The notes under the pieces were generated by a model. The model ran no database searches. It saw nothing but the letters and a program-made list of their open reading frames with translations, and was not told the DNA's origin. Shown one piece after another: positions 948 through 60,689 of a DNA stretch of 64,000 nt. The DNA comes from a virus (taxonomy: Duplodnaviria > Caudoviricetes). Positions within the stretch are counted from its first letter, which is position 1. Each line of letters begins with the position of its first letter. Made by a program: the position numbers and the translations under genes. The stretch is from positions 160,001 through 224,000 of the IMG/VR virus record IMGVR_UViG_3300021255_002539; one strand, 5' to 3'.

Positions 948-2627
948 TTATATTTCGTTTCCGTCGTCATCCGTGACAGTGACAGAGTTTTCGTTCGGCT
1001 TGTTATCCTTGTTGTCGTTGCTGTCGATGTTCACAGCCCCAACCTTGACAACTTCATCTTCTGGAGTCTTCTCTGGTTTTTCCACCTCTTGCTCCTCCTT
1101 GCCCTTCACGACCTCCACCTTCTTTGGCTTGTTGGGGTCTTCCTTCTTTGGAATCTGTTTGGATTGCTCGATGTCCTTTTTCGTCTTCTGCTTCGCCTTG
1201 ATCTCGTGTCCAACATTCTTCGCCTTTTCCTTCTGTGCCTGCTCCTGCTTGGCCTTCTCTTCCTTCTCCCTCTGTTCGTCGTCAATCCTCTTCTGCTCAA
1301 GTCTGTCGATTTCCTGCTTGATTTCCACATTGAACTTGGGGAAGAAGGACGATGGGGACTTCTTGGCGTCCAGGCAGTTGTCCACCAGGAAGCACTTGAT
1401 GGTGTGATCCTCCCCTGGGGTGAAGTCCTGTCCATAGAAGTATGTCGCCTTGCCACGTATCTTGGTTCTCCTGGTCCGATACGAATATGGCGCAACCCTT
1501 CTGGATATCGTCTCGCCATCCACTGTCTCGTACTTCAGCCACACCATCTTGCGGTTCTCTGCGCACCAGGCGATTGTATCCCACATGTCGTCGAGTGATG
1601 ATTCCCTGAGCAATCTCCTGCGACTTTTCCTCCTTCTGGTCGGTCTCTCGTCAGCTTGTCCAGTGACGAACCTCTTTCCGATTGGCATTGGGGCGTTGAC
1701 GCCTGGAACCTCCACATCGTCAACTATCCACTTGCCACCCTTTGAGGCGACACTCACGCCACAGAACTTCATGGTGTAGGTGTTGTTGACGATGAGCCAC
1801 TTGGTGTAGATTGGAAAGGATGTCAACACGTCATCATCACCATTTCTGATGATGCGCTCTATGTGTTGCTCCCCAGAGGACATGTTCTCGAAGTCGCCTA
1901 TGAACACGGCGCCAGTGGAGATGTCAGTGCCAAACCAACACAGGTCTATGAGGTCTTTGTTGGTGATTCGCACGTCCATGTAGTCACCCCTTTGCATCCA
2001 ATGTTCCTTGGCGTATTGCCTCAACTTCTGACCACATTGGAACATTATTTCGTGGAACATCTTCCTGGCCTTGCAGACATAGGTGGCGTTGGTCTTCTTG
2101 TGTGAGATTCCATAGAGGGTGCCATCGGTCAACCTCACTGTCGTGTCAGAACGGTTCTGCTCCCCATTCGTCCCATGGCTTGCAGATGCGTCTATGACCT
2201 CAACTATGTCCAGTTTCACCCTGACTCCATAGTTGTCAGAGATGTCGAGGTGGCAAACGCCATTCCTCTCGATTTCATCCAAGATGAACTTCTGAAAGTC
2301 CTCTTCGTTCTTCCTCCCCGCCCTGTGGCTGCCACCCTTCTTGATTCTGACCACTATTGGCTCTCCCTCGTCCTCTTCCTCATCGTCCAAATATGTCGGA
2401 ATCTCCAGGGTGTAGCCATCCTTCTTCGTTTTCCTCGGTGCGAGAAAGTCAATTCCCAGTTTCGGGCCGATGACCCTCACCAATTCCCTTCGCATTGCCT
2501 TGGGGTCAGGGGTATTGACTTGCAGAACCCTGTAGTCTTTCCTCACCTGGACGATTTGCACATCCAGACCTTCAACTTCTTGAAGAAGGTCGAAGTACTC
2601 GTCTATTGTGTTCGCTTCAGTTTTCAT
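948..2627 (-). CDS. Restriction-endonuclease-like domain plus C-terminal WYL-like domain and Lys/Glu-rich tail (559 aa)
   Basis: ATG 2627 with GAGGAGG RBS; RSD..(x)n..YGISHKK nuclease-like motif; after LLRE|S a WYL-like pattern VWLKY..GETISRRVAPYSY..YFYGQD..IKCFLVDNC. Confidence 0.6.
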   Translation of the reverse strand: MKTEANTIDEYFDLLQEVEGLDVQIVQVRKDYRVLQVNTPDPKAMRRELVRVIGPKLGIDFLAPRKTKKDGYTLEIPTYLDDEEEDEGEPIVVRIKKGGSHRAGRKNEEDFQKFILDEIERNGVCHLDISDNYGVRVKLDIVEVIDASASHGTNGEQNRSDTTVRLTDGTLYGISHKKTNATYVCKARKMFHEIMFQCGQKLRQYAKEHWMQRGDYMDVRITNKDLIDLCWFGTDISTGAVFIGDFENMSSGEQHIERIIRNGDDDVLTSFPIYTKWLIVNNTYTMKFCGVSVASKGGKWIVDDVEVPGVNAPMPIGKRFVTGQADERPTRRRKSRRRLLRESSLDDMWDTIAWCAENRKMVWLKYETVDGETISRRVAPYSYRTRRTKIRGKATYFYGQDFTPGEDHTIKCFLVDNCLDAKKSPSSFFPKFNVEIKQEIDRLEQKRIDDEQREKEEKAKQEQAQKEKAKNVGHEIKAKQKTKKDIEQSKQIPKKEDPNKPKKVEVVKGKEEQEVEKPEKTPEDEVVKVGAVNIDSNDNKDNKPNENSVTVTDDDGNEI

Positions 2628-2637
2628 GTTCGCCTCC

Positions 2638-5600
2638 TCAATCAAACTTCGCCCAGGATGGTATGCTCCAGGACGGGTGGAACTCGTGGAACACCTCAAG
2701 GCATCTTCCAATCTCGTGTCTCGTGTCGGGGTTCTGCCACATGTCAGAATCCACAAGCGCGTCCCAGGCGTCCCTTGGAGTCAGTATGTCGTCGCTCGTG
2801 AGGGTCTTGTCGTTGTAGAGGAACTGCACTATCTCGTCGGGGTCGTTCGTGACAAGTTGCTTGTCCACCACGCTCCACTTCGCATATGTGCCGTTCTTCT
2901 TCTGTTTCCTGGCGCGCCGTATTCTGTACAACCCCACTCGGTAGTCGTAGTCGTACCTCGTCATCTCAACTGGTTGGTTCTTGCCCTCGCCTGGTATGTC
3001 GGCGGTGGCAGTGACCTCAACATGCCCGCCTCTCGCAATAGCTGTGAACAGTCCGTTTCTGAACCCACTCTTCGGATTCACATCTTCGTCAGCCTCGCCG
3101 TTCTATACCTCCTTCAGGTCAGGCGAGAACATGCCCCACTTGGTGAACTTCATGCTGGGGGTGAGGCACAGATCAACCTGGACATACTCCCCTTCCTGCT
3201 CCCCGTCCACATTCTCGATTGGAAACGCATACGATGTAGCAGTCCATCCGTCGTTCTTGTTTATGGAGTGGTCTACGCCCAGCCTGTCTGCCACATCGTA
3301 GCACAGGTCTATGAACTCCTCTGGGGTGTTCAGTCCATTGGCGTCAGCCAGAGCCTTCTGGTCTATGGCTATGTCCAGGTCGCCCGATGTTGGCTTCTTG
3401 CCAGCAGACCCAACCAGTTCTATGGAGCCGTCTGGGAGGCTGAACGCCTGTTTCAGCGCCTCAACAGCCTTCCTAGCGGTCTCTGGTATGTTCGCCTTGT
3501 TAATCCTAGTTGTCTGCACCTTCTTGAAGTGCTTGTCTCCACTTTCGTTCGTCATCTTCGCCTTCCTATTCTACTGTCCTGCGTTGAACTTGTCTGCCCT
3601 CGCTTGGTCTGTCATGGATGGGTAGTCCCCACTCTCTGGGTTCATCAACTTGTACACTTCGTCGAATTGCTGGTCGGACAGTTCAGATGGAAGCACCTTT
3701 TTCAACGCCTCCTTGTCGTCAATGTGGTCTCTCACATAGGTCGCTGATATGTTGGAATCCCCATCTGTGGTCGCGTTGATTGCGTTCTCCTCTATTGGCA
3801 ATATCTCCACATTCTGAAGTGTGTCCTTGAATCTGTCGGTCGTAAATGCACTGAACCTGGACATGTCGTCCTTCTTGGACAACCCAAACATGACCTTGCA
3901 GTTGGAGAAGTGGCGCACAGTTGCAGAAATCCAATTCATCGGGTTCAGTGTCATCGCAATCTGAACATTGTCCAAATGGGCAGCCTCACAATATATCTCC
4001 AGAATCTCGCCAGCCACGAAGTTGGGCATGGAGCGCCCGAACTTGTCGTATCTTTGGGACGCGACATTCGTTTGCCCAGACACAGCGACAATCACTTCGT
4101 CGCATATCTCGGCATAGTGCCTTATCATGTCGAGGTGTCCCTTGTGTGGCGGTCTGAACGAGCCAGGAATCAGCGCTATCGTCTTGCCATTCTGGTCCAC
4201 GACCTTGCCATCCACCATCTCCACGAGGGACATCACATCGTTCGTGAGCAGGTTGGGGTCGAACCTCTTCGGAAGACCTTCCGCCCTCGCCTTTGAAATC
4301 TTGTCTATGAACCTGGGGAGGTCTGTCCTTCCCTTCGCGTGCGCAGCCAGTTCTTGTGCTCTGTCTATGTACTTGGGCAACAACTCCTCGTACTTCGTCT
4401 GGTACTCCTGTGGGTTCTACCGTATTGCGTTCACCATGGCGACCAGGCTCCCCTTCTCGCTCTTGCCAGTTATCGCCGACAGAAACCTCTTGGTGAAGTC
4501 CGACATCTCGTCTATCTCAGAGAAGTAGCCATTTCTGATGTCCTTCCAAGATTGGTAATGTATGCCATACAGGTTGCCCTTCAACTCAAACGCAACTCCC
4601 TCCAAAGAACCATCGTCTGCCTTCATTATGTCGGGGTTCTTGAACTTGCGCTTCATTATGTCAGTGAGGGCGGCGTTTATCTTGTCCCTGAGCTCCTCTG
4701 CCTCCTGCTTCTTCATCTTGTCTATGGTTGCTGTATTGAAAGCCTCAACCACATCATCTCCAAAGTCCTGTGCCTTGAGTTCCACCTCCTGCGCGAACTT
4801 GTTGATGTCGAAGTAGGATGCGTTGGCGTCTGACAGCTATGAGCAGGCGAAGTCCACGACCTTCTTCTTCGTTTCTGGCTCCAGGTCAAACGCCTTTTCC
4901 TTCGTCATCCCCTTCACATCAATTATGACCAGTGAGCCACGTCTGCCCAGTTTCTTTGCGTCGTAGGTGGTTCCGACATAGGTTATGGTGCCATCGTCGT
5001 CTGCGAACTCGTCGCCGTTGGAGAGCAGTTCACCAACCAACTTCACGCCATCCAGACCCAACCCCTTCACGAACTTCGCCATCTTCTCGTTTTGGTTTTC
5101 CTCCACATAGGTGAAGAAGTTCAACTCGTGGTCGTGCACCTGTGGCGTGGCTTCAGCACCTTGTCTGTCGAGCAATCCAGAATACGAAATCTCCATCAGA
5201 ACCTTGCCATCCAGCCAAGCCACCCTGAACGGGTAGCCGTCAATCTTTGGCGTGACCTTCACAATCAGCGTGGAGTCGTTGACGCTCGATATGAAGTCGT
5301 GCAAGAATTGCCTCAATTGCTTCCCTGTGAGTTGGTGTATCTTCGTCATTGCCTGGCGTGGCGTGTCTATCTCTGACATGTCCTTGGTGCTGCCGATGGA
5401 CTCGTCGACCTCCTGTGTTGTGTAGTCAGATGCCTTTAGCCCAAGGAAGTCCTCTAGTTCAGGTGGAATGTAGTCTATGTTGCCTTTCTTCAGAGGCCGT
5501 TCCAGTCCAGTTCTGAGAGACTTCTTGAACTGCTCCATCCTCACCGGGTTCTTCAATATGCCTTGCTTCTTCACTGCGTTCCAAGCATCTTGCCAAGTGA

Positions 5601-7437
5601 GCATGTTGGCAGAATCAACTCCAAACAGAATCTCGCATATCTCGTCTGGGTCGTCGGTCACCAATTCCCTGCCAACTTCCTTTTCGCCCGAGACATGGAT
5701 TCCCTCTTCTCCCTTCTTGCCCTTCATCAAAGGACGCTCAAATGTCTTCTTGAACAAACCACCTTCTTCATGTGTATAGGAATATCTTTCCCATTTGGTT
5801 GGTTGTTCCTCGTCTCCCATTCCATTGACAAGTCCAGTGTCAAGAACCCTGAATCCAGACACCCTTGCTGCTGCAGTGATTATCTGATTTCTCACCAGAC
5901 CCTTGACATACTGCTCACCCTCCACTTCTTGTGGACCGAATTGCCCCCACGCCTGGAACTTGAGGTTGTCCACTGGGATGAGGTCCAGCTGCACCACTTG
6001 ACCTTCCTGCTCTCCATCGTCGTTGCTGATTGGGTAGCCAACGGATGTTCCCTGCCACTCCCATCTCGGAAAGTTCTTCACCTCAAGCCCGTACTTCCTG
6101 CCGAACTCGTCGGCGAGGTCGAACCACTCTGAGACATCTGTTATGCCATGCTTCTGCTCCAGCGCCTGTTTGGATATCGCTATGTCGATGTCTCCGCTTG
6201 AGCCAGAATCCAGCTTCTTCCCCGTTGAGCCAAGAAAGGACACCTCGTCCTCAGACAGACCAAAGAAGTCCAGAACCTTCTGCTTCGCCGAGTCCATGGT
6301 GGACTTCGCGTTGCGCTGGTTCAGCCTTACTGCTCCTGGTATCCTCTTGCCACCCTCCTTCACCAGGGTGCTTTCGGTAACGGGCCTCCCATGACCATCT
6401 GGTCCGTCTGGGTCTGGCTTCTCTATCCCCAGCTCGTCCAACATCTCCTGTGGCATCTCCAATCCGTCGTTGATTCTATCGAGCAGCTTCTTCTTCATCG
6501 AGTCCACGAAGATCTGCCACTGCTCTGGGTTCTTTGCCCATTCGGCATCGTGTGCTGCCCTCCAGCATCCATCCCAGGTGAGCAAGTCCTTTCCCTTCAC
6601 CTTTGGTCCGAACATCAGCTTCGCAATCTTGTCAGGGTCGTCAGAAACCAGAGTGCGCTTTGTCCTGGACTTGTCCAGACCCTGGTTGTACACAGGACCC
6701 TCCACGCCGTCTGGGAGGTTCTTTGGCTGGTTCTTCATCAGAGACCGCTCCTTGTGCCACTTGTTCAGACCCTCAGGGGTGAAGAACACATACTCCTCCC
6801 AGACCACGGGCTCCTCCACGAATCCTCCATCCTTCTTCACAGTGCCAGTCTTCAGCACCTCCATCTTCTGCATGGCGTGGGAGGCAGCCTCAAGAACCAG
6901 GTTCCTTATCACGCCCTTGATGTACTTCTGTCCAGCAATCTCCTTTGGCGCGTACCTGGACCAGGCCTAGAACTTCATGTTGGTCGTTGGCATGAGGTCT
7001 ACCTGAACGAACTGACCCTTCTGCTTTCCATCGAAGTTCACAATAGGAACCCTTATGGAGAACTGCTCAACCTGGAAATTGTGCTTCAGACCCAACTTGT
7101 CCAGTATGGGTGATGCGTACTGGTTGAACTCGTACGGCTTCCTCGCAAATTCGTACTTGTTCGCGTCAATGCCAATGTCGAGGTCGCCAGATGTGGAGCC
7201 TGGCAGCTTCTTCGTGACAGAGCCAACTGGTTGCGTGTCCTTTCTGTCGATTCCCAGAGCAGGAAGTATCTCGTCGTAGATGTACTTCAGCGTTGCGGCC
7301 ACATTCTCCTGGTTTATCCTGACTGTGTCGTCGAACATCTTTCCACTTTCAAGCAACAACTCCTTGGTTTCGCCAACCAGGATTGTCCTCAAGTCGTCAG
7401 CACTCATTTCACCAACTACATCTTCTATGTTGTTCAT
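2638..7437 (-). CDS. 1599-aa polyprotein: NTase1-NTase2-ligase-like adenylation domain-HxGH nucleotidyltransferase-NTase3 (5 TAG read as Gln)
   Basis: Six track ORFs in one frame joined by TAG at 6967, 4837, 4417, 3571, 3103; ends TGA 2638; three GS-x(7-10)-GD[LI]DI motifs each followed by VQ[VL]DL; TPKIDG and EGVAF ligase motifs; PGSFRPPHKGH and ISAT motifs. Confidence 0.85.
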
Positions 7438-7517: not shown

Positions 7518-9437
7518 ATGGATACGACAAGCAAGAACACTGTTGTGCTGGAGGGTGGACACATGCCCTTCAAGAACGACAAGGGGGAGATGTTGGAGGT
7601 TTCACCCATTGACCAGGATAATGCCGCAGCCACCCTCGACGACATCCAGGACAGGTTCATATCTGGGTTTCTGCATCTGGACCCAAGCGAGGACACCGCC
7701 ACCCTGGGTTCCACTGGCAAGAGGTTGAGTGGGGAGTAGAGTTCTGACATTGACATAGCCATAGACTATTTCAAGCTGCAAAAGGAATGGGATTTGCCAG
7801 ATTGGACAGGGAAGCGCATTGAGGAATGGGTGGATTTGGCAAGGTCTGGCGCAGAGGAATGTGGAGTGGAGTTTTCCATGGTTTCCACGGTGTGTTCATT
7901 GCGCTGGCCGATAGTGAACGACGATGGAAAGCAAGAGGACCAGTATGTTCAGGTTGACTTGATGCCGACAACCAACATGAAGATGACAAGGTTCGGAAGG
8001 TTCTCCCAGTAGCAGAGGGATGGAGAGACCTTCTTCAAGGGGTCGGTCAGGAACATCATGTTGGCAATCATGGCAAGATGCGCATACCACAAGGATTTGA
8101 CTGACGAGACCCATGTGAAGGTTCTGTCGGACGGCACCGAGAAGGAAGTCCACAACGAGTACGAGGGGTGGACATACGACCAGAACACGGGTCTGCACCT
8201 TTGCCACAAGAAGTATTAGCAATACACCAGAAATGGAAATGGATTCAAGAAGGGCGATTGGAAATCCCATGCAACTGTGGTCGATTCCCCAGTGATATCT
8301 TCTGACCCCGACGAGATTTGCGAGATGATATTTGGCAAGGGCGTTACCCCCGACGATGTTGACACAGTTCAGAAGATGTGGAGGGCGTGGAAGAGTTCAC
8401 CTGCTGTCAAGGAGAATCCAGACTTGGTCGAAGAGGTGAAGATTCAGGTTCAGCGGTCAGCACAAGGCAATCCAGACATGACATTCCCAGACTTCGATGG
8501 TGAGGAATTCGTAAATGAAGCCAGGGTGAAGAAGGATCCAACCGAGCAAGTCGACGAATACATCAAGTCCCTGTCAGAAGACCAGATTCAGACCCTCACA
8601 TTGAGGTGTTCTGAACTCCTGGACAAGTGGGACGAACCACAGGGTTCAGACACAGTCCTCAGAGTGAGGCAAGTGGTTGGCAACGACGAGAGGTTCCTGA
8701 AGTTCCTGCGAAAGACAGTTCCATTGACCGAGCCAAAGGTCAGGGACATGGGGGCAAACACCTTCGTTTCGCATTTCTTCGACCCACCATTTGACAACGA
8801 GGCGTTCATAGGCAAGATGGCGAAGGAGAAGGGTATACCATTTACGCAAGCTGAGGAAGAATGGAATAGATCCAATTTGGACAAGACCCACGTTGGGAGG
8901 TATGCCCATATGCTTGCTGACGATGCCGTGAATGGTAGGCCACCATCAAAGGAGGGGACGAACCCCAAGGAGGTTGCGATATACGAGGCTGTGTACGAGT
9001 ACGCCAAGAATCTGGTGCAGGGTGCGTCTGATGTCGAAAGCGAGGTTTCCCTACATGCTTCAAGCGTTACGGTTGGTGGCAAGTTCGACCTGATGATGAA
9101 GAAGGGCAGCCAATGGGTTTTGGTGGATTGGAAGACCAATGGTGAGGAGCTTGAGGACATACCCAATGGCAAGGTTGGTCTGGACGAATTGACCAAGAAC
9201 ATCAACAACAACGCCTACAACAAGTACGCACTTCAGTTGAATGTATACGAGTGGGCAGCAAAGGACAGTGGCAAGATACCGAAGAATGCTGTCGTGAGCA
9301 AGGAACTCCACCACTTCCAGTACCTTGAGGATGGAAAGCCAATTCAGATTAGGGTTGTCAAGGTTCCAGACCTTCAGCCACTGGTTCAAGCAATGGTGGA
9401 CAGGGCGGTAGAACTTGGCGTAGTCAAGCGCAAATAA
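7518..9437 (+). CDS. PolX-like nucleotidyltransferase fused to a PD-(D/E)xK exonuclease-like domain (639 aa, 3 TAG=Gln)
   Basis: One frame across TAG 7737, 8010, 8217; LGSTGKR..SSDIDIAID and YVQVDL; C-terminal GGKFDL..VLVDWKT..YALQLNVY (Cas4/lambda-exo/AddB-like). Confidence 0.82.
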
Positions 9438-9480: not shown

Positions 9481-10734
9481 ATGAAATTCAAGAAGATTGT
9501 AAGGGAAACATCCAATTTGGACGACATGGACTATGAAATTGCGCAGAAGATGCGGGATTTCGCAAAGAAGAACATTCCAGAAGTAAGAAATGTTGTTTCC
9601 GGAAGCGCAACTGGGCAGGTATATGTGATGCTCAAGCCCGATGTTTACATAATGGCTGATGAAGCGAAAGAAATCGCACGGGAATTGATACGCGCATCTG
9701 GCGCACGTGGTTATAGATATGTTGGTGTGAACAAGGCAGACCCATATATCGTCATTGCCAGAAGGGGAATTGCAAGCGAGGCGATGAAGAAGAGGAGGAG
9801 CAAGACGCATTCCAAAGATGCCGAGAAATACTGGTTTGGCATCAAGGACGCGGAGTTCATATACCACGGAGACTGGAACGATCCAGAGGTGGAGTACAAG
9901 GGCGTGTCGTTCAACTACTATGACATCGAGAGTGGATTGCTTGGAATATACCGTGACGAGCATCCAGAGGACAGGAACGACAAGGGATTCGACGAGTGGA
10001 TGGCAGCCCACCCAGAGGAAATCAAAAGCGAATTGGATATGCTCTACGACGCCGAGATGGAGTACAGGGCAAACAACCCAAAAGGGCAGTACAACGAGGT
10101 GGAGTACAAGCCTTCGCCTGAATACGACGATAGCTGGACTTGGGGCGGAAAGCGTCACGAATGGGGCGACACCTACGGAACACTGTGCAGTAAATACGGT
10201 CCGATGGTCAGCCTTGAGCAAAAGCACTATATCCAGAAGCTTGTGAAGGAGATAGCGGACGAGTTTGGCGTGAAGACCTACGATGGATTCAACAACCTCG
10301 TCTGCGTGTCCACCAATGGAGTTTCTGACGAGGATGCTGAAGACTTCATCCAGGAGATTCTCGACAACTATCCAGAGCTGGACTATGTTGAGACTGGGAA
10401 GCACTGGTTCAAGTTCGCGCTAAAGGAGGATGACTTCATTGACCATCTCGTTGACGACGACGACAATACGTATAAAGACATTGACTACAGCGGGTTGAGA
10501 AAATACGACGAGTCCTGGGTTGGGGACAAGGCGAAGGCTGGATGGAAGAAGATCAAGTCTGGCGCAAAGAAGATGGCGAAGGCTGTTGGCGATGTGTTCA
10601 AGGGTCCGTTTAGAAAGGGCGATCATATCGTCATGAGGGGCGAAGATGGTGAGGAGTTCAAGGGAACAATCAAGTCCTTCGACCTCGGAAACAAGACATA
10701 CGAGGTTTTGCTTGGAAATCCAGTTGGCGAGTAA
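9481..10734 (+). CDS. Multi-module acidic late protein, putative internal head protein
   Basis: TGTAAATA at 9439-9446; N-terminus MKFKKIVRE|T; C-terminal SH3/KOW-like FRKGDHIV motif. Confidence 0.6.
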   Translation: MKFKKIVRETSNLDDMDYEIAQKMRDFAKKNIPEVRNVVSGSATGQVYVMLKPDVYIMADEAKEIARELIRASGARGYRYVGVNKADPYIVIARRGIASEAMKKRRSKTHSKDAEKYWFGIKDAEFIYHGDWNDPEVEYKGVSFNYYDIESGLLGIYRDEHPEDRNDKGFDEWMAAHPEEIKSELDMLYDAEMEYRANNPKGQYNEVEYKPSPEYDDSWTWGGKRHEWGDTYGTLCSKYGPMVSLEQKHYIQKLVKEIADEFGVKTYDGFNNLVCVSTNGVSDEDAEDFIQEILDNYPELDYVETGKHWFKFALKEDDFIDHLVDDDDNTYKDIDYSGLRKYDESWVGDKAKAGWKKIKSGAKKMAKAVGDVFKGPFRKGDHIVMRGEDGEEFKGTIKSFDLGNKTYEVLLGNPVGE

Positions 10735-11271: not shown

Positions 11272-13353
11272 ATGAAAAGGTTTGTCTTGAACATAGAGAG
11301 GTTGTACACAGGAGCCACTGCGAATGCCCTGGTTTTGTCGCAGGTTGACGAGGACTTTCCTGTTCTCTTGCCGTCGCTCACAATTGAGCATGATGGTGAA
11401 ACTACCTTTGGCCAGTGGAAGTCCAAGTGTCTTGAGTTGTATTCGATGTTCGACCCCATTGGACACGAATACGAGGTGAAGTTCGACAACATCAATCCAA
11501 GTCGGTATCCCATTATAGTGAAGGGCAAGTTCCTGTAGGCGGTTCGCATACCCACAACGACCACTATGGTTCAGGCCGCTTAGATGGTCATCGAGCATCC
11601 ATCTGGGGATCACCAATGGCATACCGATACCACTGTGTTCGATTTGTTCAACTCATACATACTGGACTTCAACCTGGAGAGACAAAGGGACTTCAGGAGG
11701 AATGGGCACGACGAGTTGTACTTGATGGACGACACGCAGTGGAGGAAGCCAATCAACGCAGACTCCACATACTCGTCTGACAAGACATACATGCACAGCA
11801 TAAATGGACTGGGTGACATTGGGTATGAAGACGACAAGGTTGAGGTGGTGTCTTCCCAGATGAATGTTCTGTTCCCCTTCAAGAAGGTGTCGAGCAAGTC
11901 CTTGTATGCAGCCCAGTTGGATGTGAAGTCGGCAGGCGCAGTAGACGACGCGATGGAGAGGTCCCGAACGATAACGATGCAGGGTAAGGACACGCAACAG
12001 CAATGCGTGAATGGAACTGCCGTGGTTGGTGGTCATCTCTATGTGATGTCCTCTTTGCTGAACACATTGTTCCCATCCAGGTCAGGTGGTAGACCAAATC
12101 TATCTTCCAATGGGTGGTAGATGTTGAATTCGATGATTGTGGGGAATGTGGATGACGCATACGCATTTCCACACACGATGACACTGTTCCAGCCATCTGG
12201 CGAACATAGTGGGGACGACAACCTGCAGGGGGTTACTGAATTTGCCGAATGGTATGGAATGCACGACAGAAAGACCGTGGTTTCGTTGTCCGAGGAATAT
12301 GGTGGAGACACATCGTATCTTTGGTGCCTGTGCGTTGGTGCGTATGAACTGAAATTGTCCACGCATGGACCAACAAGCATTGTGCTTGGGGAAGATGGCA
12401 AGGTTGAAGTTCCCCTAGGTGCGTCGAGTTTTCTGAAGATGCGGTCCGGTGAAGATGAACTGAACAAGTATTCTGATGGTAAGTACATCGTCAACAATGG
12501 TGGGCAGGGAACATCAGTTGGCTTCAAGTTCAACCTATACGACAACTTCATTTCTGGGCAGTACCGTAGGCTGGTGGTGAAGGTTCCGAAGGACAAGGAC
12601 TTCGACCATCTGTTGTTGCAGTTCAAGTGCCAGACATTGTTTGATGACTTGATTGGAACAGAAGCGGAGTACAAGTTGTTGGTGAATGGAGAGCAGGCGT
12701 CAGCAGACGACGATGGGTGGATAACGCACCACATAGACAATGCTGTGTCGAGGGAACACGAGGTGGAGATTGGGATATTGGTTCACTACGAAGTTGACTT
12801 CAACAGGCGCAACACAGAAAGCATATACCAGGACATGCTCAAGAATGCTGGCGTGGTGTTGTGGGACATCCATTTGGAGAAAAAGAAGAACGATGTTGGT
12901 TCACAGAAGGAGCATTTGACATTCGCAGACTATGTGAACGAGAATGGGATATCACATGAGGAGTGGGAAAGGCGATACGACCAGTTCTGGCAAGTGTCCA
13001 GGTACATCAAGGACATGCCGTACCAAACGGTGCTGGAGACGCCATTGAAGAACATGTCGGGCTCTGGAATAGCATTTGCCAACAACTACTCCACCGGCGA
13101 CATATACGGTGACACATTCGCCACCAAGTCTGTTCTGAATCCACAATATGACATGGAATTGGATGAGGCAAAGGGGATTCTGAAGTCCAAGGGCAGGGAG
13201 TACATAGGGATGGGAAATTGCTCCAGCCAGTTGTTCTTGCTATATCAGCCAACATAGGTTGAAATTGGTGGAAACGGAAGCATCTACGCATACAGGCAGG
13301 GAATTGAACTTGACGACGAAAGGAGTGGAGAAAACCAAGATGGAAAACATTGA
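11272..13353 (+). CDS. Late hypothetical protein, probably structural (693 aa, 4 TAG=Gln)
   Basis: Single frame across TAG 11536, 11581, 12118, 13255 to TGA 13351-13353. Confidence 0.7.
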
Positions 13354-16045: not shown

Positions 16046-16444
16046 TCACCTATTTAGGCTTCCGGGTGGTGCGGCAATCACATCGTCCACATCCAATATG
16101 AAGGACACGCCATATGACTTGTCGCAGTCGTTGCACTTGAACTCAGAAAGCAACTTGGCTCCAGAGAAATACCCCTCCTCTGGATAGTCGTCAGCATCCA
16201 CGAACTCGCAGTTGTGCCCACCGCAATATGGGCAGACATATGCTGGGTCGGTGGAGACATCACCAACACTTTCCTTGACAGACTTCTTACCGAACTTCTT
16301 GGCGGATTCCTTGAACTTCAGAATCTTGCCCTTCTCTGTCTTGAACAACTTGCCACTTTCTGACACATATTCAAGCTTTCCATACTTGCTTGTGAAATAC
16401 TTGGACTTCTCAAAAGCCTCTTTCGTTATGTTGAGTTTTTTCAT
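16046..16444 (-). CDS. 47-aa conserved leader fused to a Zn-ribbon cargo
   Basis: MKKLNITKEAFEKS...ILKFKE|S followed by CPYC..CNDC; late promoter 16489-16496. Confidence 0.75.
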   Translation of the reverse strand: MKKLNITKEAFEKSKYFTSKYGKLEYVSESGKLFKTEKGKILKFKESAKKFGKKSVKESVGDVSTDPAYVCPYCGGHNCEFVDADDYPEEGYFSGAKLLSEFKCNDCDKSYGVSFILDVDDVIAAPPGSLNR

Positions 16445-17538: not shown

Positions 17539-18225
17539 TTACATGTCAACTTCGGTTGAAACAGATATGTCAATCTTGAAGTCAAGTCCATAATATGGAT
17601 CATTAACCAATATGCTCTTGTAGTCCATCATATCAGGTTCCACTGTGTATTCATCACCATCGCACTTCTTCAATGCACTGACAACACAATCCCTGAACTC
17701 CCTAATCTCGTCAGAGTATTCGTCTTCTCCTTCCATGCACTTGAACCTGGGATTGGATTCTGTGCCTTCCTTGGTGAACTTCTTGGTGGATTCGGTTGTA
17801 TCCTGTTTTGGTCTACACCAATCTTGGGGATGCCATTCATCTTTCCTCCAAGAACCATGTGGACGATATGTTCCAGCATTTTCGTCTCCATATCTCCATT
17901 GTCCATCAATCCATTGGACATCTTTCACGACAAATGGATACCATTCATCGCCCTTTGGATATTTCCACTCCAATTCATCCCCAACCTTGAACTTGGGTTT
18001 CCCCTTGAACATCTTCTTCAATCCTTTAATGCCATCGTCCATTCTACTTCCAATATCAGAGAATAATCCCTCATTTACCTGCTTGGATTCCTTGAACATC
18101 AGAATCCTGCCCTTATTCGTCTTGAACACCTTGCCAGATTCACTGACATATTCCAACTCACCATATTTGTTCGTGAAGTATTGGCTTTTCTCAAAAGCCT
18201 CTTTCGTTATTGGTAGTTTCTTCAT
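17539..18225 (-). CDS. 47-aa conserved leader fused to SH3-like and acidic cargo modules
   Basis: MKKLPITKEAFEKS...ILMFKE|S; internal VNE|G, TTE|S, GTE|S; late promoter 18258-18265. Confidence 0.75.
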   Translation of the reverse strand: MKKLPITKEAFEKSQYFTNKYGELEYVSESGKVFKTNKGRILMFKESKQVNEGLFSDIGSRMDDGIKGLKKMFKGKPKFKVGDELEWKYPKGDEWYPFVVKDVQWIDGQWRYGDENAGTYRPHGSWRKDEWHPQDWCRPKQDTTESTKKFTKEGTESNPRFKCMEGEDEYSDEIREFRDCVVSALKKCDGDEYTVEPDMMDYKSILVNDPYYGLDFKIDISVSTEVDM

Positions 18226-26688: not shown

Positions 26689-28161
26689 TCACACTCCCTT
26701 GTTGATTCTGTCCCGGATTTCGGCGAAGGTGGTCTTGTTGAGCATCACGCCATCCTTGAACACAGTCTTGAGCGCGCTGGCGGTCTCGTTGAGCATCTTG
26801 TCGTGTTCATCGGTCTCGAACAGGTTGCCATTGCTGTCCCTCATGACCCAAACGATTCCCTTGTGGCTCTTCTTGAGCTTGCCGGTGTCGGTCTTCGGGT
26901 CCTTGTAGATGAAGTGGAACTGGCCATTGGTGACGCCAGCACAAGCCTTGGCCGCGATTCCAAAGGTATCTCGGGTGTTGACAATCAACTTCTCGTTGTC
27001 GAAGATCGCGCTGAAGCAAAAGGCACCCACGCCAAAGCAGACATTGTTGGCTGCGAACCCATGCTTCTCCATCCAATCCCAAATCTTGCGCACTGTGAAG
27101 AGTGTGCATCCATCGCCCAGGATGATTCTGATGTGGGGATCCAGGACGCTATAACCCTTGCTGTTCTCCTCTCCACCGAACTCGTCCCAAAGCATTTCGA
27201 GGGTCTTGGTCACTGTCTCAAACTGGTCTCCCGAATCCGGGCGGATTAGGAGCGTCCCATTGTGCTTGAGGATTTCACCCTTGAGCGCAGGGATGATGTT
27301 CTCGACCAGGTTCCAGTAGTCGTAGGTGTCCGAAACCATGCTGAACGAGGTGTTGGGGTAGATCTCGGTTAGCATGCGCTTGATGAAGGTCACTTCGTCC
27401 CCATCAATGGCGTAGTTGCTTGCCATCACACTGTGTTCAGTCGAGACAGCACCCTGACCAATCTTGGTGTTGCTCACATCGGCTTCGTAATACTTGTCGA
27501 TGTAGGGAAGCGCCGGGATTGTACTGGTCTTGTTGAAGCAAGTAAGCCAGGCAGCCGAGCACCTAGCGGCTTCGTTCGTGCAGCTCATTCCCCTCATGCC
27601 AAAGTCCGACATGGCGTTCTTGGGGTCGCAATTTGGGTCGCAGGTCCTGTCGTAGTATTCCTTCGCCAGCTCCAGGTACATCTTGGAAATGGTGGCGTGG
27701 TTGCAGGTCTTCCAGAGTTCGGCCTGCAGGATGCACTCAACCCACTGGACGAGCCAAGCGAAGTGATCGTTGGTGTTCGTGATTTCGATGCAGGGGATGC
27801 CCATGTTCACCGAAGTTCCCTCGGGGATTGCCCGAATCTGAAGTGGGAGGTAACCCAGCCTGTGGAGGTCGATGATATTCGTGGTTGCGTATCCCCCACC
27901 AGGAAGCTGAACCTTCATGTACTTCTCGTATTCGGCTATGACTTCGTTGATTTCGCGGTCAAAGAAGTTCTCCTTGAAGTAGTCCACCAGGAACTCCTGA
28001 ATGAAAGCCTGAAGCCCGAAGAACACCATCTTGTCGCAGGTCTTGAGCATGGATTTCCTGGGAGTCCAATAGGAATAGAGTTTCGTCAACCCAGGGTTGT
28101 ATTGAAGAATGTGGCAGAACTTGTAAGTGTCGGCCAAAAGCATTGCGTTTGTCTTAATCAT
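26689..28161 (-). CDS. nadV: Nicotinamide phosphoribosyltransferase family (NadV/Namat-like), 490 aa
   Basis: LLADTYK..H..QY, FFGLQ, DFGMRG, STEHSVM, VSDTYD, IRPDSGD, GDG, RDTFG.A.K, KDPKTD..KKS.KG. Confidence 0.88.
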   Translation of the reverse strand: MIKTNAMLLADTYKFCHILQYNPGLTKLYSYWTPRKSMLKTCDKMVFFGLQAFIQEFLVDYFKENFFDREINEVIAEYEKYMKVQLPGGGYATTNIIDLHRLGYLPLQIRAIPEGTSVNMGIPCIEITNTNDHFAWLVQWVECILQAELWKTCNHATISKMYLELAKEYYDRTCDPNCDPKNAMSDFGMRGMSCTNEAARCSAAWLTCFNKTSTIPALPYIDKYYEADVSNTKIGQGAVSTEHSVMASNYAIDGDEVTFIKRMLTEIYPNTSFSMVSDTYDYWNLVENIIPALKGEILKHNGTLLIRPDSGDQFETVTKTLEMLWDEFGGEENSKGYSVLDPHIRIILGDGCTLFTVRKIWDWMEKHGFAANNVCFGVGAFCFSAIFDNEKLIVNTRDTFGIAAKACAGVTNGQFHFIYKDPKTDTGKLKKSHKGIVWVMRDSNGNLFETDEHDKMLNETASALKTVFKDGVMLNKTTFAEIRDRINKGV

Positions 28162-28177
28162 TGTCTTGTTCTCCTTT

Positions 28178-29020
28178 TTAGAATTCACGAATAATCTTGA
28201 TCTTGTTGCTGGCAACCTGTACACGGAAGATGGAGTTGGTGGCGTAGATGGTCTTGATGAGGTCTCCCTGAATCAGCTTGCCCTTCTCCTTGTCCATTAC
28301 CGAGTTCTCAAGGTGGGTGACATAGCAGGAGATGTCGTTTGCCCCCTTGTCCTTCAACGCGCAGGCCGAGTAGTAGAATGTTCCACCATAGGCGCAAATG
28401 TCGTCAATCATGAGGATGTTCTTGCCCTTGAGGTCGTCGTAGCCAGCAATGTCGATTCCCAGAATCTTCCCGGTCTTCCAATCGCGCTTCTTGATGCCAA
28501 ACGCGACTGGCAATTCGAGGAACGAGAGCAGGTCACTATACCTCTTGCAAGCACCTTCATCGGGGAAGTAGAGAACCACATCTCTATCGGTTGCGGCGAA
28601 GTGAAGAGCCATCTGGACATCCTCGGCCACGCAGTCGAAGTCAACGGACACCCGGTCGAACAATGCCTCGCTTACAGTGCTGTGGGGGTTGCAGATGGTG
28701 ACGCCCTCGAACCCAAGCCAGTTGATGGTCTCGGCGAACGCCTTGAGGGTGAATACCTCGTCCGAGTTCTTGACCCTGTCCATTCTGGCGTTGGGGACAT
28801 AGGGAAGTTTGAGCCAAATTCTGCACCTTGCCTTGCTCTTGAGGTGCTTGACGAGCGCAATGAGCTGGAACAGCTCGGAGTCGTTGTCGTAAAGCCATGT
28901 GATTCTGTATGCCCCATCCACGAAAGTGGGGTTGTACTTGATGAGCTTCGTCCCATCGGGGAATGTCGTGGGGTTGAGCATCACCGTGTTCTGGTTGTTC
29001 AAATCTTCTACTTTAATCAT
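28178..29020 (-). CDS. prs: Ribose-phosphate pyrophosphokinase family (Prs/Adps-like)
   Basis: FPDGT, LPYVPNARMDR, NPHS, PDEGA.KRY, K.RD..TG, IDDICAYGGTF, YVTH. Confidence 0.85.
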   Translation of the reverse strand: MIKVEDLNNQNTVMLNPTTFPDGTKLIKYNPTFVDGAYRITWLYDNDSELFQLIALVKHLKSKARCRIWLKLPYVPNARMDRVKNSDEVFTLKAFAETINWLGFEGVTICNPHSTVSEALFDRVSVDFDCVAEDVQMALHFAATDRDVVLYFPDEGACKRYSDLLSFLELPVAFGIKKRDWKTGKILGIDIAGYDDLKGKNILMIDDICAYGGTFYYSACALKDKGANDISCYVTHLENSVMDKEKGKLIQGDLIKTIYATNSIFRVQVASNKIKIIREF

Positions 29021-37428: not shown

Positions 37429-38394
37429 TCACTTTCCATATCTAATGATGGAATCATCGTCAAAAGCATTATCTGAAATTTCTGGGTTTCCGAGGATTCT
37501 GACCTCTTTTAGTTTTTCGCAATCAGCAAATGCAAGAGTTCCAATGTATGTTACACTCTTTGGTACCGTCACGGATGTTAATTCAGGACAGCACTAAAAC
37601 ATCTAACTATGAATCCTTTCTATATTGTTAGATAGTTTAACATTCATTAAACTAGAACATCCAGCAAATTCGGCACATCCCATTTCCATTACACTATTTG
37701 GAATCTTTATGCTCGTAAGGCTACTGCAATCATGAAAAGTATAACCAATAAACTTAATTACACTATCTGGAATTACTACATTTTTCAAATTTTTGCATTT
37801 CTCAAACGCGCACAATCCTATCTCCTCGACCCCATAGGGAATAATCACTTTTTCAAGACTCTCGCAATATCTGAACGCCTCTTGCCCAATGCTTTTTACG
37901 CTGTCAGGAATAATTACTTTGGTGAGACTTTCACAAAGTGCAAATGTACCTTGTCTAATGTATTGTATTCCTGATGGAATCGTTATTTTTTTAAGGCTTT
38001 TGCAACAACAAAACGCCATCCTGCCAATATTTGATACATTGGGTGGTATTTCTACTTTGATGAGATTATTGCAGTCATAAAACGCATAATCTCCGATACT
38101 TTCCACCGAGTCTGGAATTACAACTTTGCTCAAACGGTAGCACTCGTAGAACGCTTTGTTACCAATGGATTTGACTCCGCTTGGAATTACAGCAATTCTT
38201 CTCTTTCCATTATATTTCACCAAAACACCATTGTCAATATCAAATTCACCATCAGACTCGTTAAACTTCAGTATTTTTCCCTTGTCCGTCTTGAACAGAT
38301 TTCCTGATTCGGAGACATATTCAAGCTTGCCGTACTTCTCCGTGAAGTATTGGCTTTTCTGAAAAGCCTCCTTCGTTATGTTCAATTTCTTCAT
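37429..38394 (-). CDS. 47-aa conserved leader fused to a BspA-type (LRR_5) leucine-rich repeat protein (321 aa, 2 TAG=Gln)
   Basis: Repeats V.IP.SV..IG..AF..C..L continue through TAG 37603 and 37594 to TGA 37429; AT-rich cargo. Confidence 0.85.
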
Positions 38395-41268: not shown

Positions 41269-43356
41269 TCAGTAGTTGTTCCTGGACATCAAGTTGAGGT
41301 TCTTGTTGACGACCCTTATCCTCTGCTTCAGTTCCTCCTCAGTGTTGGTGTAGAGGACTGGGTACATGAATGGCTCAAGCGATATGTTGCCACTCTTCAC
41401 CTGCAGGTCGTCAGCGAGATCAACCAGGTCGGTGTTGGTGCAGAACACAGCCATGGAGATTCCATGCGTATATATTGGCGATTCGTTCTTTCCCGATTGG
41501 TAGACCGTGTATATGTCAGACACCTGTGGCATCTTCTCCATTATCAAGTTCACGATGTCGTTGGTGTTGAAGGAACCAAATCCAACCTGCCTGTTCCTGA
41601 CATTGAAGAAGTAGGACAAGAGGGAGCATACGCGCTCCATCACCTCGTTGGACGAGATCGAGTAGTCGTCGTTGATTCTGACCTCCAGCCAGGAGGCGTC
41701 GTAGTCCCCATCGTCCCCCCGTATTGTTGGAACTGTCGTGTGTCCATTGGATTCGAGGTACAACTTGGCATCCTCCTCGGGGACACTGGATATCTCGCAC
41801 CTCATTTGGATTGCTGGCATCAAAACTGGCTCGTGGCACATGTCCTTCAAGTCGAACATCATGGACTTGCACCTCTGGATCATCTGGTCGTAGTTGATGT
41901 CTGACACATCTCCGAAGTTCGTGATGTACCAGATGTAGACGTTGTTGGAGTCAACTGCGTCAGATAGCGCCGCACCACCATACTTCGTGAACCTCGCAGG
42001 GTTGAGGTAGTACCTGGGGTTTCCATCGTGGTTCTTCACGCCAAGTTGGTTGAGCCATCTGTAGAAGGTCGCCACATACTCCCAGTTGTTCATCACCTTC
42101 ACTGAGTTGAACATCCCAGATATGGATGGTTCGTTCATGACGAAGAACTCGTAGTCCTCCTTCGTCACGAGCCTGTTGTTCATCTTGAACCAATGTGGTG
42201 CCCGCTCCCTTATCTCGTCTGGACCCTCCTCCCTGACTGCTGATGTCGAGCTTGTCAACACAGAGCAATCAAGCAAATCTACATTCGTCTCGCCAGGGAA
42301 CAACTTGTCGTAGAGTTCCTGGGATATGCCAAGCATCGCGGCGTCGTGTCTGAACTGCAGTTTGTCTGAAGCTGGCGTCACGCCACCTTGCATTCCCTGC
42401 GTCTCCAGGTAGAACACATACAGTTCTGAATTTGGCGTCAACTTCCTGGTGGTCACGCCATCGCCGAACTTCAACACCAGTTGCTTAATCTCGTTCAATT
42501 CCACATTGAACACATTGTCGTCCTCCCCACCAAGTCCATTGTAGAGGAAGTTGTGGAGTTGGTCTGTGTCGTTCACATTTGGCAGACCCTTGAACAGACC
42601 TTGTTGCGTTGGGTGGAACACATTCACGGTGGTTCTGCCCCAGTCAATCTCGTCTGGGTTGTCTTGCTTCGTTTGCTTCACAACCTCCACTGCGAATATG
42701 TGGGATGTGGTGGCGTACTTTTGCTCGTCCATCTCGCTCCGCACCATTGGCATCACGAATGTCTCGTAGTCGGTTCCATTGGGCGTGAACACAGTCGAAT
42801 ACCGCTTCCAAACGCCATTGTGCAGAACGATGTCGTATGGCTTTCCTGACTCCAGATTCCTGGGGATTTGACACTCTTGCCAGTGGTATGGACAATAGGA
42901 GTAGTACTTGCCCTCCTTCGTCGAGACCATGGCGAATGGGGGTATGGACACATTGCGCGTCACTGGGTTCTGCACCAAGTCCCCTGCATTGGAGAGTCTG
43001 AACATCGCCGTGCTTGGCGTAATGCCCTTTGCGTTGTAGCCAATCAACTTCGCAATCCTCACGATGTTCTCGTAGTATTGGGACTGGGAGAACATGGATT
43101 CGGAAGCAGCATGGTTCAATTGATAGGACAGTGTCTGGTACATCGTAGCAACAAGATCCACCAATATCGCCAGGTTGCTGCCTGGGTAGACCTGATCCCT
43201 GGTTGCTGGATCCTCTATGAGTTTCCTGATAATCAAGTCCCTCATCTGGTAGGCATTAAAACAAGCCAGTTTAATGGGAAAGTCCTTGGACAAGGTAACA
43301 TTGTCCTTTGAAAACCTCTTCTGGTCGTCGTAGTTTGAGTTCTTTGAAATAGCCAT
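41269..43356 (-). CDS. Baseplate wedge protein, T4 gp6-like (695 aa)
   Basis: GSNLAILVDL..ESMFSQS..IAKLIGY; LKFGDG; YLETQG..G; E..DEIR..AP..NRLVT.EDY. Confidence 0.85.
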   Translation of the reverse strand: MAISKNSNYDDQKRFSKDNVTLSKDFPIKLACFNAYQMRDLIIRKLIEDPATRDQVYPGSNLAILVDLVATMYQTLSYQLNHAASESMFSQSQYYENIVRIAKLIGYNAKGITPSTAMFRLSNAGDLVQNPVTRNVSIPPFAMVSTKEGKYYSYCPYHWQECQIPRNLESGKPYDIVLHNGVWKRYSTVFTPNGTDYETFVMPMVRSEMDEQKYATTSHIFAVEVVKQTKQDNPDEIDWGRTTVNVFHPTQQGLFKGLPNVNDTDQLHNFLYNGLGGEDDNVFNVELNEIKQLVLKFGDGVTTRKLTPNSELYVFYLETQGMQGGVTPASDKLQFRHDAAMLGISQELYDKLFPGETNVDLLDCSVLTSSTSAVREEGPDEIRERAPHWFKMNNRLVTKEDYEFFVMNEPSISGMFNSVKVMNNWEYVATFYRWLNQLGVKNHDGNPRYYLNPARFTKYGGAALSDAVDSNNVYIWYITNFGDVSDINYDQMIQRCKSMMFDLKDMCHEPVLMPAIQMRCEISSVPEEDAKLYLESNGHTTVPTIRGDDGDYDASWLEVRINDDYSISSNEVMERVCSLLSYFFNVRNRQVGFGSFNTNDIVNLIMEKMPQVSDIYTVYQSGKNESPIYTHGISMAVFCTNTDLVDLADDLQVKSGNISLEPFMYPVLYTNTEEELKQRIRVVNKNLNLMSRNNY

Positions 43357-43487
43357 TGTTCTGTCTCTGTTGGTTTTTCTCGCTTTGCTATTTACCATTA
43401 AAAACTTTTTTCAAAAAACTGCAAAACATCCCTCGGTTTTTGTCCGTTTTTGCGTAAATATATGTAGACTTTGAAAAAGGAACTTCC

Positions 43488-44558: not shown

Positions 44559-44599
44559 CATACTTCACACCAAACAAAGAACAAAAACAGGTAAAAGAA

Positions 44600-59984: not shown

Positions 59985-60689
59985 TCACATTTCGTCTTCT
60001 GGCAAGTCCTCGTAGTAATCCATGCCGTTTTCCAATGCGGCATTCTCCATATACTGCCAAAACTCGTCCTTGATTTGCTCTCCCTTCCAATCGTCGTCAA
60101 GAACCTCGTCCAAATTGGGGCCAAGGTACTTCGCTATTTCATCATCCCCCCAACCTGCGCTTGACAAGTAGTCGTAGATGTCATATGCAATTCTCTGCAT
60201 TGTCTTGTCGTCGAGTTGGCTTGCAGCCATTGGTTCGGGCAGTGATTCGTAGTCGTACCTCGTGATTGTCACGCCCTTGTAGGTGAATTCCTTTTCCATG
60301 TCATCAAAGGACTCCTTGAGCATTTTACCCTATACCATCTTGAAGTCAGCAACTTTATTGCCATTCTGACTTATGACAATGAATTCGTCGTCTTCAACCC
60401 AAATAGCTTTTCCGTTACATTTACGGGCAATGAAATTTCCATTTCGTTCAATCCACTGTTTACATGACTTCATGGAATTAAAAGTACGGATTTGGTCTTC
60501 ATTCCAATTTTCGCATGATGCAAGGCAGGTAATGTGTCCCATATCATTGGATTCCTTGAACATCAGCACTTTGCCTTTGTTGGTCTTGAATACCTTGCCA
60601 CTTTCTGACACGTATTCAAGTTTGCCGTATTTGCGCGTGAAGTAGTTGCTTTTTTCAAAAGCTTCCTTCGTTATTGGTAGTTTCTTCAT
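59985..60689 (-). CDS. 47-aa conserved leader plus two cargo modules (234 aa, 1 TAG=Gln)
   Basis: MKKLPITKEAFEKS...VLMFKE|S; TAG 60330 then GKMLKE|S and a second module. Confidence 0.75.

Follow-up and report, generated by a model that had tools for sequence, protein, structure and literature searches.

A TAG-recoded phage gene for a predicted polyprotein of PolX-like nucleotidyltransferases, an Rnl2-like ligase and a HIGH-superfamily domain

We analyzed a window of 64,000 bp (bases 160001-224000) in the virus record IMGVR_UViG_3300021255_002539, a complete gut phage genome of 414,060 bp with direct terminal repeats (G000 below). The minus strand of the window at 2638-7437 carries a single gene, P0001, of 1599 codons, in which comparison with orthologs marks five in-frame TAGs as sense codons. 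Its product is predicted to hold five enzyme modules: three copies of a Pol-beta-fold nucleotidyltransferase (NTase) with a PolX-like thumb, a ligase-like domain of the Rnl2/REL1 type, and an NTase of the HIGH superfamily. The models support all three nucleotidyl-transfer chemistries as real, with activity predicted. We regard it as an even call whether the product is a precursor that is cut by the prohead protease, packed in the capsid and injected as a kit for the repair of nucleic-acid ends. The gene and its parts are as follows, in window coordinates.

2638..7437, minus strand: whole gene P0001, 1599 codons, TAG read as Gln; stop (TAA/TGA) at 2638-2640
7348..7437, minus strand: N-terminal leader of 30 residues ending L-L-E, a candidate targeting and propeptide segment
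6355..7347, minus strand: NTase copy 1, residues 31-361, palm and thumb, PolX-like; catalytic D85, D87 and the Asp of VQVDL; contains TAG157
6967-6969, minus strand: TAG157, inside NTase copy 1
5401..6354, minus strand: NTase copy 2, residues 362-679, the copy modeled; D416, D418
4201..5400, minus strand: ligase-like domain, residues 680-1079, Rnl2/REL1-like adenylyltransferase with motif I K731-I-D-G, then a helical C-terminal part; contains TAG867 and TAG1007
4837-4839, minus strand: TAG867, inside the ligase-like domain
4417-4419, minus strand: TAG1007, inside the ligase-like domain
3544..4200, minus strand: HIGH nucleotidyltransferase domain, residues 1080-1298; HKGH at 1098 and a second signature, I-S-x-T-x-x-R, near 1229
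3571-3573, minus strand: TAG1289, C-terminal linker of the HIGH domain
2641..3543, minus strand: NTase copy 3, residues 1299-1599; D1353, D1355; contains TAG1445
3103-3105, minus strand: TAG1445, inside NTase copy 3

Reading frame and TAG recoding

Under translation table 15 the 1599 codons are uninterrupted and contain exactly five TAGs (codons 157, 867, 1007, 1289 and 1445). Under table 11 the frame splits into six pieces, each TAG ending one, in agreement with the original prediction, made from the sequence of the window, that the frame is visible only when five TAGs are read through. The frame is not a product of chance: a profile of its three NTase copies matches 788 proteins (E ≤ 0.001, among 1.84 billion representatives), including a full-length ortholog, P0003, with 53% identity over 1539 residues. 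We read the TAGs as sense codons because orthologs and a related strain carry Gln or Glu codons at three of these positions, and four of the five (157, 867, 1007 and 1445) sit within conserved domains. In close orthologs codons 157 and 1007 specify Gln and codon 867 specifies Glu or Gln. Codon 867 is GAG in the related strain of sequencing run X6, one of four DNA runs whose contigs were compared (position 4839 A>C). The residue at each TAG was taken from the close orthologs, as the NTase alignment columns are too variable there to read. TAG read-through is also needed by many other long genes of the window, among them a 1206-residue tail sheath, a 1678-residue fibre-like protein and the neighbours of the polyprotein.

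A candidate amber-suppressor tRNA is encoded outside the window (G000:C1:297902-297980, minus strand). This 79-nt cloverleaf, which was folded by hand, has the anticodon CUA in an anticodon loop CUCUAAC, a 7-bp acceptor stem, an encoded CCA and non-canonical D and T loops, and is nearest to tRNA-Gln(UUG) among the phage's 27 tRNAs. A tRNA(CUA) was not reported by ARAGORN (window and genome) or by Rfam (2-kb stretch). ARAGORN did report a tRNA-like gene, whose anticodon loop has 6 nt and whose anticodon could not be assigned, at G000:C1:367853-367926 (minus strand), inside the tRNA cluster and beside a tmRNA-like gene.

The PolX-like nucleotidyltransferase family

The three NTase copies are pairwise 30-36% identical, and 60 columns of their alignment do not vary, among them GS, D-x-D and the third Asp. 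This confirms the three paralogous domains with common motifs of the original prediction. The proteins matched by their profile are mostly stand-alone metagenomic proteins of ~290 residues. Gly42, D55, Q122 and D124 show no variation in 94 family members, a set that takes in the four copies of this genome (the fourth lies in the divergent gene described below). No Pfam, NCBIfam or PHROG model matches the NTase domain (Pfam to E ≤ 10, with only noise for any copy), and a PDB sequence search with the NTase profile likewise gave only noise. A tblastn search against 50,697 phage records resulted, at E ≤ 1e-5, in hits to Lak megaphages only; the Lak copy stands alone, and neither a ligase nor a HIGH gene lies within 7 kb of it.

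The AlphaFold (AF2) model of NTase copy 2, built from 94 sequences, has a predicted local distance difference test score (pLDDT) of 91.9. When it was searched against 48,161 chains, the eight best matches were all family-X polymerases with Z scores of 9.0-10.0 (pol beta, Thermus PolX, terminal deoxynucleotidyltransferase (TdT), pol lambda, ASFV Pol X and Leishmania pol beta), and the top 50 Foldseek matches were all pol beta or lambda. The alignments to family-X polymerases take in 164-184 residues of copy 2 (model residues 5-259) across palm and thumb; those to terminal uridylyltransferases, CD-NTases and MenT are confined to ~100 palm residues. The 8-kDa lyase domain and the helix-hairpin-helix fingers domain are absent from the model, which has one 19-residue helix before the palm, and the alignments begin at pol beta residue 142. 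The model thus supports the NTase copies as Pol-beta-fold NTases with a PolX-like thumb, the assignment first made from motifs, and the Asp triad is kept in every copy. The family has no Pfam or PHROG model and is an undescribed PolX-like family.

The ligase-like and HIGH-superfamily domains

The original prediction had also named a ligase-like KIDG domain and an HxGH nucleotidyltransferase, and both hold up. An AF2 model of the ligase-like domain from 16 relatives (pLDDT 88.4) best matches Trypanosoma brucei REL1 (Z 11.1), Naegleria NgrRnl (10.7) and T4 Rnl2 (10.2 and 10.0) over ~200 residues, and Foldseek is concordant. Motifs I (K731-I-D-G), III (G-E-L) and IV (E-G-V) are conserved, in order, across the family alignment. 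The RNA_ligase model PF09414 is matched by 4/16 family members around or below its cut-off (P0024 26.7 bits and L008 24.6 bits vs. 27; best E 4.2e-7), and a PDB sequence search with the ligase profile gave only noise. In the phage's own genome there was no match anywhere to RlaP, PF09414 or NUDIX. The modeled fold supports the domain as a putative nick-sealing ligase of the Rnl2/REL1 type.

The HIGH domain, with HKGH at residue 1098, scores above the curated cut-offs of PF01467 (31.4 bits vs. 21) and TIGR00125 (40.5 bits vs. 27.7) and is the sole CTP_transf_like match in the 414-kb genome. It falls below the equivalog cut-offs of nicotinamide mononucleotide adenylyltransferase (NMNAT) and phosphopantetheine adenylyltransferase (PPAT), with 20-40 bits vs. 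103-341 (best PPAT 39 vs. 103; NMNAT 25-27 vs. 112-127). A protein atlas search with a TAG-free DNA query found only generic viral cytidylyltransferase-like clusters. In relatives the HxGH domain always adjoins the ligase domain, not NUDIX.

A gene for a Nampt/NadV-like nicotinamide phosphoribosyltransferase lies 20 kb from the polyprotein (window 26689-28224, minus strand; PHROG E 1e-159) and contains no TAG. A separate gene for NMNAT or NUDIX is absent from the genome. Together with the NUDIX domains found in relatives, the Nampt gene keeps open the option that the HxGH domain has an NAD-linked role.

Leaders, junctions and the prohead protease

The module junctions of P0001 are LLLE|SG (residues 27-32), LVKE|GG (358-363), EVDE|S (676-680) and MTNE|SG (1295-1300). 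All four had been quoted beforehand as candidate sites for a protease cutting after hydrophobic-x-Glu (h-x-E). All are in place, and h-x-E precedes nearly every internal NTase or ligase domain of fused relatives; the proposal fits less well at copy 3, where P3 is Thr.

An N-terminal leader is present in 76/90 stand-alone NTase homologs, with a modal length of 10 residues. In these leader-bearing homologs P1 before the conserved G-G is Glu in 72/76 and P3 is L, I or V in 67/76. Ten of the remaining stand-alone homologs begin M-GG, and removal of the Met would give them the same N-terminus as the leader-bearing proteins would have after cutting. In proteins of at least 500 residues, aliphatic-x-Glu stands before 35/36 NTase domains, N-terminal or internal, and two further domains start M-GG. 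The exception among the 36 is copy 3 of P0001, for which the aligner places the boundary one residue further on, at E-S|G-D; this can be read as E|S-G with Thr at P3. The h-x-E site before NTase domains is often doubled, with the second site six residues upstream, and aliphatic-x-Glu precedes 23/23 of the ligase domains checked in fused relatives.

The T4 capsid-targeting sequence is cleaved once and keeps whatever protein is fused to it inside the capsid (PMC8442874), and T4-type prohead proteases cut after Glu (PMC5694885). The commonest leader of the stand-alone homologs differs from the T4 sequence at four positions, all conservatively. The phage genome encodes a gp21-type prohead protease (G000:349663-350115; PF03420 45.1 bits vs. 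a cut-off of 27). Judging by sequence comparison, the family-wide junctions are supported as behaving like prohead protease sites. Packaging and proteolytic maturation of P0001 are supported only indirectly, by comparison and by the published virion proteome of one homolog's phage.

A DNA pattern for the first seven residues of the leader, M-K-T-F-K-Q-F, was scanned against IMG/VR. Leaders of this type head at least 120 loci (L015-L134), on unrelated open reading frames (ORFs) of uncultured phages, where fewer than 10 would be expected by chance (a rough estimate). Among the matches listed, 114/125 ORFs have Glu at residue 9 or 10. Among the larger cargoes are a major capsid (Phage_capsid) protein, two ADP-ribosyltransferases, S-adenosylmethionine (SAM) lyases, wall hydrolases and two HIGH NTases. 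The leader is also found on lytic transglycosylases and on a recurrent 51-residue Cys-containing protein. Such genes can occur in runs, with four consecutive in L063 and two each in L062 and L091.

The 30-residue leader of P0001 has a core, E|SGK-F, in common with a 47-residue leader cassette of eight other genes in the genome. This 47-residue leader is near-identical on the eight genes, which are unrelated, and contains two aliphatic-x-Glu|Ser sites. Its E|S-G-K core is common to the polyprotein and its neighbour, and its second half resembles the N-terminus of the NTase-nuclease protein described below. The eight genes are located as follows.

Window 16046-16444, 17539-18225, 37429-38394 and 59985-60689, minus strand: genes with the 47-residue leader
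G000 96800-97510, 100326-100640, 235359-236387 and 248159-248644, plus strand: genes with the 47-residue leader, elsewhere in the genome

Homologs in other phages

The best viral structural match of the NTase is a protein of the cultured jumbo phage Atu_ph07, which the family profile finds at E 4.6e-28. It is gp65, by gene order from gp70 (gp41-like helicase) and by an exact match of its 32.16 kDa mass. Mass spectrometry of Atu_ph07 virions detected gp65 with 10 unique peptides and 36.8% coverage (PMC6102473). The upstream neighbour of gp65, gp66, has K-L-D-G and a weak RNA_ligase match, and gp67 has a weak LPD3 match (E 0.0038). Beside the NTase gene, eight tandem genes (MF403008.1 44090-50592; L137 91-6593) begin M-[RK]-[WL]-x-Q-L-x-E. 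Seven are paralogs of ~255 residues and the eighth is gp63 (362 residues); all of gp56-gp63 are in the published virion proteome, and the array looks like an internal-protein locus.

On a T4-like contig, a leader resembling the T4 capsid-targeting sequence heads four consecutive genes, which encode an HAD-phosphatase-like protein, an RNA-ligase-like protein, the NTase and a 135-residue protein. The NTase is fused to the ligase in P0001, P0003-5, 12, 17, 22, 24, 28, 33, 36 and 81, and the two are adjacent in L008 and Atu_ph07. A search for related loci started from P0027 yielded a single locus. The recurrent partners of the NTase, fused or adjacent, are RNA-ligase-like, HAD-phosphatase-like, PD-(D/E)XK and NUDIX domains.

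Neighbouring genes

A divergent gene 80 bp from the polyprotein encodes a fourth NTase paralog and a nuclease.

7518..9437, plus strand: divergent NTase-nuclease gene, with a short leader ending V-L-E|GG
about 7548-8582, plus strand: fourth NTase paralog in the divergent gene, three TAGs
about 8760-9374, plus strand: C-terminal PD-(D/E)XK nuclease in the divergent gene

Downstream of it lie two unannotated genes, one (window 9481-10734, plus strand) with a 9-residue leader ending I-V-R-E and the other (11272-13353, plus strand) with four TAGs. On the far side of the polyprotein, a gene for a 559-residue protein (948-2627, minus strand) starts 11 nt past the polyprotein stop. The protein has no family match and ends in a long Lys/Glu-rich tail, and its gene may belong to the same transcription unit as that of the polyprotein. 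The window holds a single copy of the T4 late-promoter octamer TATAAATA; it precedes the sheath gene, and the polyprotein gene has none ahead of it.

Proposed function

In the reading that we favor, the TAG-recoded gene would yield a 1599-residue precursor of three NTases, a ligase and an HxGH adenylyl- or cytidylyltransferase. The precursor would be taken into the prohead, where the gp21-type protease would cut after the Glu of h-x-E and free NTase modules that start with Gly-Gly or Ser-Gly. The ligase and HxGH parts may remain joined, since there is no conserved Glu site ahead of HxGH. The pieces would remain in the head until they pass into the cell together with the DNA, and there they would act as a kit to trim, fill and seal broken nucleic-acid ends. 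The NTases would add one or a few (ribo)nucleotides to a 3′-OH, the ligase would seal the nick, and the nuclease-NTase fusion encoded by the neighbour would do the trimming. For this phage we infer the packaging, cleavage, injection, activity and substrate.

A role at polynucleotide ends is suggested by the recurrent partners (Rnl2-like ligase, HAD-phosphatase-like, PD-(D/E)XK and NUDIX). Among the roles that the original prediction had offered, these partners favor end repair, and protein modification and nucleotide signaling now appear less likely. As to the substrate, RNA repair of the RlaP-plus-ligase type is our first choice, at a little under even confidence. Repair of nicked or cut phage DNA with ribonucleotides is possible though doubtful, and anything else is slightly less likely again. 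By analogy, addition of ribonucleotides to phage DNA, followed by a ligase that prefers a 3′ ribonucleotide, would be equally coherent with RNA repair; Rnl2 and LigD are the basis of this comparison.

We tentatively extend the proposal, as something we lean against rather than toward, to large phages of several lineages. Their capsids would be loaded, by way of a T4-like cleavable leader, with a PolX-based kit for trimming, filling and sealing. Breaks or nicks in the incoming DNA, or cleaved tRNAs, would be mended before any phage gene is switched on, as a pre-emptive counter-defence against restriction, nicking and anticodon nucleases. In TAG-recoded megaphages the kit would have been fused into one stoichiometric precursor.

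Several observations weigh against an injected repair kit or against parts of it. The Z scores of ~10 for the NTase and ligase folds are moderate, and sequence models of PolX and RlaP give no match to the NTase copies. The ligase-like domain of P0001 itself does not match PF09414, and motif V is not clearly conserved in the ligase family. No conserved Glu site was found before the HxGH domain in the family alignment, and the P0001 leader is unlike the MKTFKQF type. Efficient suppression would be needed at five TAGs. TAG content alone is no marker of late genes, because the genes of the major head protein (44540-46198, plus strand) and of a baseplate wedge protein (41269-43398, minus strand) contain zero TAGs; the sheath, fibre and polyprotein genes do contain TAG. 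The Atu_ph07 virions were purified with polyethylene glycol (PEG) only, and a few plainly non-structural proteins were also detected at low coverage (PMC6102473). In the same proteome the ligase-like gp66 was not detected. In the T4-like contig and in Atu_ph07, the genes adjoin replication genes (gp32, UvsX, gp41), not head genes.

The last two points suit the strongest alternative, an unpackaged cytoplasmic multi-enzyme for the repair of RNA (e.g., tRNA), in which leaders and h-x-E would serve as linkers or in complex assembly or translation initiation. T4 Pnkp/Rnl1 and the RlaP-Rnl systems provide RNA repair that is made during infection. The replication and recombination neighbourhoods of the stand-alone homologs fit such a role, and the known RNA-ligase-associated Pol-beta NTases act in the cytoplasm (PMC7824862). 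However, the same leader is found on unrelated cargoes typical of ejected or capsid proteins, virtually all domain boundaries have Glu at P1 and an aliphatic residue at P3, leaderless homologs begin precisely at M-GG, and gp65 was detected in Atu_ph07 virions with 10 peptides. We consider the cytoplasmic enzyme improbable, though a serious competitor.

A second alternative is that the kit works on nucleotides, with the HxGH domain as an NMN adenylyltransferase that rebuilds NAD+ together with Nampt, and the NTases making or capping small nucleotide signals. The Nampt gene 20 kb away, the status of HxGH as the genome's only CTP_transf_like domain, its weak matches to NMNAT models, and the addition of NUDIX in relatives, as in bifunctional NMNAT-Nudix enzymes, would all fit. 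The shortfall against the NMNAT and PPAT equivalog cut-offs does not, nor do the tie of HxGH to the ligase in relatives, the PolX-type thumb in place of a CD-NTase/OAS-type C-domain, and the ligase and nuclease partners. This reading appears distinctly improbable. It is very improbable that the modules are bulk internal head proteins (DNA-condensing or pressure-modulating cargo) with vestigial enzyme folds. T4 internal proteins are abundant and partly non-enzymatic, and the NTase has been multiplied here (three copies plus one), but no copy here has lost the Asp triad, the motif I Lys of the ligase or HxGH, and across the families these residues vary little or not at all. Finally, the six ORFs under table 11 and the lack of a tRNA(CUA) from ARAGORN or Rfam could mean that each TAG really ends translation and that the frame is a set of separate genes or a decayed pseudogene. 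We dismiss this almost entirely: four of the TAGs would split catalytic motifs within conserved domains, sense codons stand at these places in orthologs, read-through is also required by many other long genes of the window, and a CUA cloverleaf exists.

If the kit is injected, nucleic-acid repair enzymes would be a new class of cargo delivered with phage DNA and would offer a way to survive nucleolytic defences at the most vulnerable moment of infection. Independent of injection, a large phage NTase family (788 representative clusters) outside the Pfam and PHROG models is now defined, its fold is assigned, and it is consistently tied to Rnl2-like ligases and HIGH NTases. Use of the T4-type capsid-targeting leader appears to extend well past the cultured T-even phages and to take in many unrelated cargoes. 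The minimal PolX-like enzymes and compact Rnl2-like ligases may have practical value as reagents. The case also shows that annotation with the standard code misses the largest and most unusual genes of recoded phages.

Comparison with known systems

RlaP NTases add 1-2 nucleoside monophosphates to damaged RNA 3′ ends and are found beside RNA ligases (PMC7824862; bioRxiv 10.64898/2025.12.29.696909). The RlaP and RNA-ligase repair system is, by analogy, the closest known counterpart of the NTase-ligase kit. Both couple an NTase of the Pol-beta superfamily to an Rnl-type ligase, and an end-healing partner is found in the HAD-phosphatase-like gene of the T4-like contig. In contrast to RlaP (PF10127), no NTase copy matches that model at E ≤ 10, nor does anything in the genome, and the NTase copies have a PolX-thumb-like C-terminal half. 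The modules here are also fused, multiplied and leader-bearing, and are virion-associated in one cultured phage.

The ligase-like domain shares the adenylyltransferase fold, motifs I, III and IV and a C-terminal helical region with T4 Rnl2, REL1 and NgrRnl. It differs in a long insert between motifs III and IV, an unclear motif V and a score below PF09414, and the relatives of the P0001 ligase always have a HIGH NTase domain before or after it. The NTase copies share with family-X polymerases the G-S, D-x-D and third-Asp active site and the palm and thumb, and with ASFV Pol X also the absence of the 8-kDa and fingers domains. They are, however, 11-15% identical to family-X polymerases, have no Pfam PolX match and carry an additional helical tail of ~60 residues.

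LigD, of bacterial non-homologous end joining, contains a polymerase, an end-processing activity and a ligase in one protein, and its polymerase adds the ribonucleotides that its ligase prefers. The P0001 kit resembles it in combining predicted polymerase, end-processing and ligase functions. LigD differs in its archaeo-eukaryotic primase (AEP) polymerase fold and its DNA-type ligase with an OB domain, and the P0001 system has no Ku partner.

The likeness to T4 internal proteins and Alt lies in the leader. The ~10-residue leader of the homologs ends in aliphatic-x-Glu and is close to the T4 capsid-targeting sequence (PMC8442874), it can head unrelated cargoes, and the phage encodes a protease of the gp21 family (PMC5694885). 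In P0001, however, several cargoes are concatenated with internal sites, the phage's own leaders are of different sequence, and the cargoes are nucleic-acid enzymes, not restriction inhibitors or ADP-ribosyltransferases. Polyvalent proteins likewise carry several disparate enzyme domains per polypeptide, and it has been proposed that they are delivered into the host along with the DNA (Iyer et al., 2017; PMC5512222). The polyvalent hub domains (MuF, zincin-like peptidase, ArdC-N and SNF2) have no Pfam match in P0001; the weak LPD3 match of Atu_ph07 gp67 is the one such sign in a relative. Processing in this phage would differ in using the prohead protease at Glu sites. In the survey of polyvalent proteins, the 2H-domain versions were never associated with RNA ligases (Iyer et al., 2017; PMC5512222). 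The P0001 polyprotein brings together themes known from elsewhere (capsid-targeted ejected proteins, polyvalent proteins and RNA-ligase-associated NTases), and the PolX-like family on which it is built is undescribed.

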